A stretch of 64,000 nt of DNA, from contig CAYGBK010000085.1 in NCBI GenBank assembly GCA_964348095.1, forward strand, positions 920 to 64,919, given 5' to 3'. Below the pieces are notes generated by a model that saw only the letters and a list, made by a program, of their open reading frames with translations, made no database searches and was not told the origin of the DNA. Shown here piece by piece: positions 1,822 to 2,360 of the stretch. The translations under genes and the position numbers were made by a program. Source of the stretch: an uncultured Thermodesulfobacteriota bacterium (GTDB taxonomy: Bacteria > Desulfobacterota > BSN033 > WVXP01). The number at the start of each line of letters is the position of its first letter. The stretch's first letter is position 1.

Positions 1822-1894
1822 TGTTATTAGTGATTAGTTATTTGTGACTCGTTATGAGTGATTAGTTATTAGTGACTAGCTATTGCCTGTTAGA
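1822..1894. repeat. 14-nt periodic repeat block (about 5 units) ending in ATTGCCTG, immediately 3' of the four-helix-bundle gene
   Basis: Units read ttattagtgattag / ttatttgtgactcg / ttatgagtgattag / ttattagtgactag / ctattgcctgttag. Confidence 0.6.
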
Positions 1895-2275
1895 ACCAGA
1901 ATCATCTTTGCTTTTCTTAAGCGAACGGATGTAACCGTTCAATAGGCGCATACAGTCCTCAATCCGCTTCTTGGCTTCGGTGAACTCTCCTTCTGATATA
2001 TAGGAGTTATCAAATGAGGTAATCATGTGATCAAGGAGTTCACTGAGCGAGCCTCGAGCCATACGACAAAACTGGATATTCTCTTGGAAATAATAGCGGC
2101 CAAACCCTTCAGCGATATTGGCCGTTACTGATCTCTTTGCCCTGATTATCTGATCCACAAGACGGTATTTCTCAGATTCAGGGAATCTCTTAATTAGGCC
2201 CCTCATAAAACTTTTCAACTCCCTTGATCTCTTCCAGACTTGTAACTCTTGGAAGGACTTAATCCGATTTCCCAT
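1880..2275 (-). CDS. Four-helix bundle protein (TIGR02436-like, '23S rRNA intervening-sequence protein' family)
   Basis: 131 aa. Family-typical motifs are present: LxVWKRS...L, ...QIIRAxxSVxANIAEGFGR, ...ARGSLxEL. Confidence 0.8.
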   Translation of the reverse strand: MGNRIKSFQELQVWKRSRELKSFMRGLIKRFPESEKYRLVDQIIRAKRSVTANIAEGFGRYYFQENIQFCRMARGSLSELLDHMITSFDNSYISEGEFTEAKKRIEDCMRLLNGYIRSLKKSKDDSGSNRQ

Positions 2276-2280
2276 TTCGG

Positions 2281-2360
2281 GTCAGTGATTAGTAAATCGT
2301 TGTGAATTATTGGTCATTTAGTAATTGCCTGCAATCGTTTAGTGGTAATCATGTGTCACT
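2281..2360. repeat. 14-nt periodic repeat block 5' of the four-helix-bundle gene; it also contains the ATTGCCTG motif
   Basis: Sequence: gtcagtgattagtaaatcgttgtgaattattggtcatttagtaattgcctgcaatcgtttagtggtaatcat. The AGTGATTAGT and ATTGCCTG words are shared as direct repeats with the 1822-1894 block. Confidence 0.55.

Follow-up and report, generated by a model that had tools for sequence, protein, structure and literature searches.

A four-helix-bundle gene with heptanucleotide repeat arms in an exopolysaccharide operon of an uncultured Thermodesulfobacteriota bacterium

The four-helix-bundle gene and the arrays around it

We analysed a 64,000-nt stretch of contig CAYGBK010000085.1 (the window) from an uncultured Thermodesulfobacteriota bacterium, focusing on a small gene for a four-helix-bundle (4HB) protein that lies in an exopolysaccharide (EPS) operon, between a CpsB-like phosphatase gene and a Wzy-like (O-antigen-ligase-like) gene, and is flanked by short tandem repeats. 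S23p/4HB proteins were first found in the 1990s in intervening sequences (IVSs) of rRNA. Comparison with homologous loci revealed that, across phyla, 4HB genes carry short-period arrays immediately on their 5′ side (G-rich, often GTTAnnn) and on their 3′ side (C-rich, nnnTAAC).

The gene occupies positions 1880–2275 of the minus strand and encodes 131 aa, with a TAG stop codon at 1880–1882. Its product is a full-length PF05635/TIGR02436 4HB protein, as had been proposed from the sequence: the TIGR02436 profile scored 98.2 bits (cut-off 24; profile positions 1–109 of 109) and the PF05635 profile, the only family found, 105.2 bits (cut-off 33.8; positions 1–106 of 106). The AlphaFold model (predicted local distance difference test score, pLDDT, 91.5) comprised helices at residues 12–28, 39–58, 63–89 and 95–128. 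In Foldseek comparisons, with template modelling (TM) scores normalised to the target, it superposed on XCC0516 (2GSC; 0.91–0.95), on BT_0352 (2RLD; 0.79–0.88) and, at 10% identity, on Avd of the Bordetella phage retroelement (4DWL; 0.88), as well as on the Avd chains of the 8UB7 ribonucleoprotein. Profile comparison matched the family to 2gsc at E = 4e-17, and the 2gsc and 2rld entries contain five chains each. The motif GxxRxxxSxxxNxxE is conserved in the 4HB/IVS protein family (Lin 2006; Zhang 2013, PMC3936711); in our alignment R45-x3-S49-x3-N53-x2-E56 was invariant, while the first motif position was Q42, invariant within the clade, and not G.

The protein is basic, with an isoelectric point (pI) of 9.8 against a median of 8.7 across 120 homologues. 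Compared with its syntenic orthologues at six related loci (L003–L008), the ratio of nonsynonymous to synonymous substitution rates (dN/dS) was 0.04–0.11 with saturated synonymous sites, and strong purifying selection thus acts on the protein. A tblastn search found no second 4HB copy in the window, and no family of the PADLOC anti-phage defence models matched at the locus. The protein homology search returned thousands of homologues; most of those 73–83% identical to the window protein (P0002–P0023) lay on very short contigs of 0.5–6 kb, for which assembly breaks at the flanking arrays could be one cause.

On the 3′ side, the whole 58-nt spacer between the 4HB stop codon and the Wzy-like ATG (1819–1821) is a single array. 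This 3′ arm (1822–1879, minus strand) consists of eight heptamers, of TAAC/TCAC type on the sense strand, arranged in a 14-nt super-unit that was seen in lag-7 and lag-14 scans. Tandem Repeats Finder (TRF) reported period 14 at 1823–1884 (4.4 copies, 79% matches, score 82), period 28 at 1823–1877 (2.0 copies, 92% matches) and period 7 at 1826–1879 (7.7 copies); the array is thus built from 7-nt units, with 14 nt as a super-period. On the 5′ side, a proximal block (2276–2340, minus strand) consists of degenerate heptamers that are TAAC-type like those of the 3′ arm. It was recognised from a shared repeat family (2283–2314 belongs to the same 32-nt family as the left block, at 75% identity), from a lag-7 identity peak of 0.49 at 2281–2340 against a background of 0.25, and from word counts; TRF detected nothing at 2281–2340 even at a minimum score of 30.

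The original prediction had placed blocks of 14-nt repeats on both sides of the gene and had named two direct words common to them. Its left block was borne out, though with a 7-nt unit, whereas its right block is only weakly periodic. The word AGTGATTAGT occurred three times in 64 kb, always within the two flanks and with its third copy at 2284–2293 in the proximal 5′ block, against 0.13 expected (0 of 100 shuffles reached three). The word ATTGCCTG also occurred three times, but 2.29 were expected; this count is within chance, and its left copy (1882–1889) overlaps the stop and final codons of the 4HB open reading frame (ORF).

An arm of opposite orientation, which had escaped notice earlier, lies further upstream. 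This distal 5′ arm (2399–2430, minus strand) begins 7 nt past the cpsB-like stop codon and comprises about four units of GTTA type on the sense strand. It was identified from inverted repeats with the TAAC-type arrays, to which it is complementary (1820–1837 with 2406–2423, 18 nt, 83%; two further inverted repeats). The two upstream blocks are separated by a spacer (2341–2398, minus strand) containing the exact 12-mer GGTAATCATGTG at 2344–2355, which recurs at 2018–2029 inside the 4HB ORF, where it codes for HMIT. Two matches were present in the window against about 0 expected, and the translation of the spacer likewise includes HMIT, which hints that the spacer may be the remnant of a decayed upstream tandem 4HB copy. 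The layout of the locus is therefore [GTTA arm 2399–2430]-[spacer]-[TAAC block 2276–2340]-ORF-[TAAC arm 1822–1879], and it is the TAAC-type block, placed between the ORF and the true 5′ arm, that makes the flanks look like direct repeats. The window copy is an old, rearranged and somewhat decayed member of its class.

Repeat arms across the 4HB family

The association between gene and arrays was assessed in two independent locus sets: 69 metagenome loci, with homologues 31–81% identical, and 80 loci from named genomes of Bacteroidota, Thermodesulfobacteriota, Nitrospirota, Planctomycetota, Verrucomicrobiota, Ignavibacteria, Saccharibacteria and a Limnohabitans. The closest relative among the named genomes was only 61% identical. 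In both sets, sense-strand GTTA reached 27–36 per kb in the 50 nt upstream of the 4HB ORF and sense-strand TAAC 31–35 per kb in the 50 nt downstream, an 8–10-fold enrichment over a background of about 3 per kb that was reached by 150–200 nt from the ORF. Mean lag-7 identity was 0.40–0.46 at the ORF ends and 0.25 beyond 160 nt, and at distances of up to 200 nt from a 4HB gene, short-period arrays were 20-fold denser than in the remaining sequence. When an array was defined as at least three GTTA or TAAC cores spaced 6–8 nt apart, 39% of the spacers adjoining a 4HB gene (64/165) bore one, compared with 1.9% of the other spacers of the same loci (5/267; odds ratio 33, p = 4e-25). A strict periodicity detector gave 19% and 4.5%, respectively; it understates the arrays because three variable positions differ between units, and the core-spacing pattern was added for this reason.

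The GTTA/TAAC core was kept in the arms of the clade at least 47% identical to the window protein, which spans Bacteroidota, Thermodesulfobacteriota, Nitrospirota, Verrucomicrobiota, Saccharibacteria and Betaproteobacteria. Distant 4HB clades carried other units, namely AGTGAAC/GTTCACT, GGTCATT/AATGACC, GGCTCAA/TTGAGCY and GGTTAAG/CTTAACC. On two metagenome contigs (L057, Ga0208826_1000003; L066, Ga0255341_1025788), AATGACC/GGTCATT arrays surround a distant 4HB gene (31–33% identity) and recur every few hundred bases, often preceded by a cctctttac motif; we take this unit to be a rotation of the cyanobacterial STRR2 repeat TTGGTCA.

Arm layout and cross-flank folding were scored over 113 loci. 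Arms were inverted only at 60 loci, direct only at 13, both at 8 and neither at 32, and the direct arrangement put forward earlier for this cassette is the rarer one. Flanks of the same gene shared 4.5 inverted eight-mers, compared with 0.69 for permuted partners and 0.14 for distal flanks. In the minimum-free-energy fold of the sense transcript, 83 of the 113 loci showed flank-to-flank pairing of 15 bp or more (median 26 bp). Raw duplex energy was rejected as a measure, as it was uninformative against distal flanks (−36.8 against −35.0) and GC-richer coding sequence gave equally low values; shared k-mers and cross-flank pairs were used in its place. Paralogous cassettes within one genome had differing units and yet each had matching arms (L097, L105, L007, L152). 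The polarity of the arms was also consistent: GC skew was +0.43 in the 5′ flank and −0.28 in the 3′ flank, and a G-rich 5′ arm with a C-rich 3′ arm was found at 74 loci against 3 reversed (19 against 2 for units without the GTTA core).

Seven loci of the direct class were inspected (L004, L014, L075, L081, L087, L095 and L150). All seven had a GTTA-type arm further upstream, in the layout [GTTA arm]-[TAAC block]-ORF-[TAAC arm] seen in the window. The upstream hairpin of L014 retains a truncated 4HB N-terminus within it, suggesting that the direct layout can arise from a tandem pair through decay of the first copy.

4HB genes were co-oriented with their neighbours in 91% of cases, compared with 71% of other adjacent gene pairs (p = 8e-12), and the gaps between them had medians of 64–69 nt. 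By eye, we identified 4HB genes between sdhA-like and sdhB-like genes at many Bacteroidota loci and between trpG-like and trpD-like genes at L013, and PF05635 genes have been seen inserted in cas operons, for example between cmr3 and cmr2 (PMC3936711). The sdhA/frdA-like to sdhB/frdB-like junction recurs: a 4HB cassette follows an upstream gene ending in ...RSYK* and precedes a downstream gene beginning with MKLTLKIWRQ at what seems to be the same place in many Bacteroidota loci (L016, L020, L024, L026, L028, L091, L093, L107, L111, L115, L136, L137, L139, L140, L146 and L147) and in one locus of an Ignavibacteriae metagenome-assembled genome (L122), the genes again having been identified by eye. 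Either the insertion at this junction is very old or the junction is a hot spot. A literature search found no paper reporting a family-wide link between 4HB genes and arrays; its coverage was incomplete, so novelty is unproven, and the class of gene plus arms seems not to have been described as such before.

The host operon, the history of the site and arrays in neighbouring genes

The window cassette sits between protein-coding genes and not in a 23S rRNA gene. Upstream lies the CpsB/CapC-like phosphatase gene (2437–3294, minus strand; PF19567) and downstream the gene for the Wzy_C/O-antigen-ligase-like membrane protein (235–1821, minus strand; PF04932). All three genes are on the minus strand, separated by gaps of 161 and 58 nt, and neither a sigma-70-like promoter nor an intrinsic-terminator-like site was found between cpsB, the 4HB gene and wzy on that strand. 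An Rfam scan of positions 1–4000 gave no match. The genes called within 8.5 kb upstream and 1.4 kb downstream of the 4HB gene included AAA_16/AAA_22, DnaJ, CpsB and Wzy_C families; no reverse-transcriptase family was among them, the rest of the window and template/variable repeats not having been searched.

Related loci allowed the history of the CpsB–Wzy junction to be traced. Two of them (L001 and L002) represent the same locus as the window, 99.9% identical and gap-free over 4.8 and 10.3 kb, and at this scale the arrays are therefore stable. In L003–L008 the CpsB–4HB–Wzy synteny was kept, with 4HB proteins about 80% identical to that of the window. The saturated synonymous sites and low dN/dS of this comparison indicate that the 4HB gene is old at the site and that its protein has been kept by selection. 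Arm layout differed among these orthologues, with L003 and L006–L008 plain inverted and L004 and L005, like the window, bearing an extra upstream TAAC block. At two more distant loci (L152 and L153), whose ligase is about 60% identical to that of the window, the junction was occupied by a 4HB gene of another clade, only 27–37% identical, with GGCTCAA/TTGAGCY arms unlike those of the window; this looks like a non-orthologous replacement or an independent insertion. In L153 the junction gene appears to be interrupted near its N-terminus (2306–2445): a fragment coding MKFGYEDLD, with which the L152 orthologue starts, is found about 90 nt 5′ of the called gene, beyond unrelated sequence. At L154 (ligase 64% identical) the junction was empty, a 27-nt gap with neither a 4HB gene nor arrays, and this site was too diverged from the window for alignment of the boundaries, including any target-site duplication.

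These comparisons agree with the proposal that gene and repeats behave as a cassette, as the junction is empty in one relative and filled by another clade with other arms in two. The original prediction had named two observations that would speak against it, namely other 4HB genes lacking such flanks and relatives carrying the gene at the same place without repeats; because flanking repeats are family-wide, neither was borne out. The suggestion of a recent drop-in did not survive: the orthologues are about 80% identical, their synonymous sites are saturated and dN/dS is low. The cassette idea was therefore right in spirit and wrong on age and on the logic of direct repeats.

Arrays also occur beyond the cassette, none of them noticed earlier. 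The Wzy-like gene contains in-frame heptamer arrays in two loop regions (1306–1379 and 1476–1574), and the CpsB-like gene contains one at 2951–3044 with the sense unit CGAAATC (TRF period 7, 10.4 copies); their translation gives ITNN/SNDS/RNPKSEI-type peptide repeats. When six orthologous ligases were aligned, indels of 0–43 aa, made of ITNN/ITDN/SNQS-like repeats, appeared exactly at both array positions, and in place of the CGAAATC units of the window the L007 phosphatase carries GTTA- and TAAC-type arrays. We weighed phase variation through the in-frame arrays and set it aside, as L001 and L002 are gap-free against the window and give no evidence of copy-number switching. Of the five GT[TG]A-type arrays in the 64 kb, four were no more than 1.8 kb from the 4HB gene.

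The spacer between the Wzy-like gene and the GDP-mannose-dehydratase-like (gmd-like) gene (100–234, minus strand) was examined by TRF and by comparison with relatives. It holds (GTTAAG)n at 111–133 and further repeats with periods of 9–13 nt, close to the gmd-like ATG (97–99). A second 4HB cassette was found downstream of the ligase in L007, L152 and L153 and in neither the window nor L154, and to judge from these relatives the spacer is a solo arm where they have a second cassette. Both the window (111–133) and L154 retain a (CTTAAC)n tract just before the gmd-like start codon; as it is kept without a 4HB gene, arms can outlast the gene. A further solo GTTA-type array (15635–15724, plus strand; TRF period 14, 4.4 copies) is flanked by two convergent ORFs, 14916–15647 (plus strand) and 15738–16301 (minus strand), and ends in the small palindrome TCACGTGA; tblastn found no 4HB gene near it. 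Finally, the ORF at 5377–7524 (minus strand) begins ...ANNGCQITNNRSAISSYHY (7441–7524), coded by TAAC-type units aataacggctgccagataacgaataatc. In the L002 gene call (687 aa, MYEAYFG...) these units lie just upstream of the start, and the stretch is probably a short array in the leader and not coding sequence. Since repeats also lie beyond the cassette ends, whether as solo arrays or within the reading frames of the neighbouring genes, the earlier view of them as simple target-site duplications or insertion footprints is not favoured.

Interpretation of the cassette

With moderate confidence, we regard the 4HB gene and its repeat arms as the operon-resident counterpart of the ORF-bearing 23S rRNA IVS, a cassette of a selfish type. 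Such a cassette would have no promoter of its own and would be co-transcribed on the message of its host operon. In typical members the arms would pair in the RNA as a stem of at least 20 bp around the ORF. RNase III would then cleave this stem, as it does that of the Coxiella IVS, whose 5′ cut lies in the first tandem heptamer. Cleavage would free the ORF RNA and split the host messages, and arms built from tandem repeats would still pair after slippage. The predicted stem, with a median of 26 bp, would be long enough for RNase III. The 23S IVSs of Leptospira, Coxiella, Xanthomonas and Brucella carry an S23p ORF of the same PF05635 family in sense orientation within a highly transcribed unit; the ORF is likewise bracketed by complementary sequences, and occupancy is likewise scattered and polymorphic. 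In Coxiella, the S23p ORF has two or three tandem GACAGAT heptamers just upstream, varying in number between strains, and the RNase III 5′ cut at the first heptamer has been shown experimentally (PMC4990558). The likeness has limits: the host is rRNA in one case and a protein-coding EPS operon in the other, the 4HB arms, built around a GTTA/TAAC core, are longer arrays (4–15 units), an enclosing stem is missing from the window copy, and the Coxiella ORF has been judged to be decaying whereas the window protein is under strong purifying selection.

Several observations weigh against this interpretation. In a control in which the 3′ arm was swapped from another locus, pairing of at least 15 bp still formed in 55 of 112 cases, owing to the shared cores. 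The duplex energies of sense and antisense strands did not differ significantly (p = 0.11), and G–U pairing therefore does not prove that selection acts on the RNA. In the window copy itself, no ORF-enclosing stem was predicted (0–3 cross-flank pairs in the minimum-free-energy fold), and the RNA fold was unexceptional (z −1.2 over 661 nt and −0.4 for the 5′ region); with no such stem predicted, the arms here may be vestigial while the protein is retained. A core conserved across phyla exceeds what a stem alone needs, and a protein under selection does something, for which a pure RNA-stem model gives no role. To our knowledge, RNase III cleavage has been demonstrated for rRNA IVSs only and for no operon-resident copy.

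The main rival to the IVS-like interpretation, possible though we hold it only tentatively, addresses the protein directly: the arms would be recognition sites, as RNA or as single-stranded or duplex DNA, for a 4HB oligomer. In this view a basic pentamer of toroidal shape would contact one heptamer with each protomer and would act on the arrays of its own gene by regulating, protecting or propagating them, much as with RAYT and the repetitive extragenic palindromic (REP) sequences that flank its gene and depend on it, and solo and in-coding arrays would be dispersed products of its activity. The retention of the core across phyla in the clade at least 47% identical, the other units of distant clades (AGTGAAC, GGTCATT, GGCTCAA, GGTTAAG) and the fixed strand polarity of the arms are all consistent with this, as are a basic protein under purifying selection, a fold resembling pentameric XCC0516 and Avd (the latter part of the RNA–protein complex 8UB7) and the clustering of four of five GT[TG]A-type arrays near the gene. 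The partner of heptamer repeats in Nostoc has, moreover, been described as "yet to be identified" (10.1101/2022.06.06.494920). On the other side, paralogous cassettes of different clades differ in unit but close homologues, too, differ at three variable positions, so that specificity would rest on about 4 nt, and joint inheritance of gene and arms predicts the link between unit and clade equally well. The protein also has no known catalytic motif with which to copy or move DNA.

It is improbable, in our view, that the 3′ arm serves as an A/C-rich, G-poor and unstructured translation leader or insulator that restores expression of the downstream gene, with the 5′ arm a by-product. Such a role would fit an array that runs up to the Wzy ATG without a Shine–Dalgarno sequence, 3′ flanks that are C-rich and G-poor, and the (CTTAAC)n tract retained before the gmd-like gene with or without a 4HB gene; for TAACTGA repeats lying a few nt from start codons, a role in translation has been proposed (PMC4679880). 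It leaves unexplained a 5′ arm that is complementary and specific to its cassette, and also the arrays inside coding regions. Less probable still is a recent insertion, with the direct repeats as its footprints, target-site duplications or recombination sites; this idea draws on the empty site of L154 and on AGTGATTAGT, common to both flanks and present nowhere else in 64 kb. This word is merely a repeat unit, the insertion is ancient by the saturation of synonymous sites against syntenic orthologues, four of those orthologues (L003, L006–L008) are plain inverted at the same site, and direct layouts are a minority that always have an extra arm of opposite orientation further upstream. Scarcely credible, finally, is a coincidence of slippage-prone heptanucleotide repeats, common in these genomes, with a small gene situated by chance in AT-rich spacers. 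Solo arrays do occur, at 15635–15724 and in numbers at L057 and L066, and heptanucleotides are reported to be the most abundant class of long simple sequence repeats in many prokaryotes (cited in PMC4679880). An odds ratio of 33 against other spacers of the same loci nevertheless contradicts chance, and orientation, polarity and the matching of arms are all non-random.

Two other known systems resemble the cassette. REP/RAYT systems (REPINs) also combine a small gene with inverted short-repeat flanks and with repeats dispersed through intergenic regions of the same genome. The likeness is by analogy only: RAYT is an HUH/Y1 transposase, whereas the 4HB protein belongs to PF05635 only and has no known catalytic motif, and REPs are single palindromic units whereas 4HB arms are tandem heptamer arrays. 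PF05635 is a Pfam family that resembles Avd (PMC10053308). Avd of diversity-generating retroelements shares the 4HB fold, but, unlike Avd, the window gene stands alone with repeat arms, and the neighbouring genes called include no reverse-transcriptase family.

The closest parallel to the arms themselves lies in prokaryotic heptanucleotide repeats. Those of cyanobacteria, the short tandemly repeated repetitive (STRR) sequences, are said to have been described by Mazel and colleagues in 1990. Heptanucleotide repeats such as TAACTGA and those of Nostoc have 7-nt units, several of them TAAC-cored, lie in intergenic regions by start codons and sometimes in frame within genes, and occur in the same phyla as the 4HB arrays with a patchy spread that suggests horizontal transfer. 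In Beggiatoaceae, Cyanobacteria and Bacteroidetes, TAACTGA repeats adjoin start codons and sometimes lie inside ORFs, and their distribution has been taken to suggest horizontal transfer with "no mechanism evident" (PMC4679880). Unlike the heptanucleotide repeats reported so far, 4HB arrays are paired, inverted and tied to a gene. A text search found no 4HB/IVS protein terms in either the TAACTGA paper (PMC4679880) or the Nostoc study (10.1101/2022.06.06.494920).

A broader proposal, which we consider speculative and on balance unlikely, is that PF05635 4HB proteins are the missing partners of bacterial heptanucleotide arrays (STRR, TAACTGA and related repeats). Gene and arms would then form a widespread, unrecognised selfish cassette, resident in rRNA as IVSs and in operons, whose basic Avd-like oligomer would bind its own arms. 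Spread might proceed via RNase III-released RNA and a reverse transcriptase acting in trans, and solo and in-frame arrays would be its footprints.

The linkage of gene and arrays joins two puzzles, the role of 4HB/S23p proteins and the question of what makes or binds heptanucleotide repeats, and it offers a concrete candidate pair for studies of binding, RNase III processing and mobility. For annotation, cassettes borne in operons (EPS, sdhA–sdhB, trpG–trpD and cas) can be mistaken for components of the pathway or of the cas system. In addition, arrays of the 4HB type insert variable peptide segments into neighbouring proteins.

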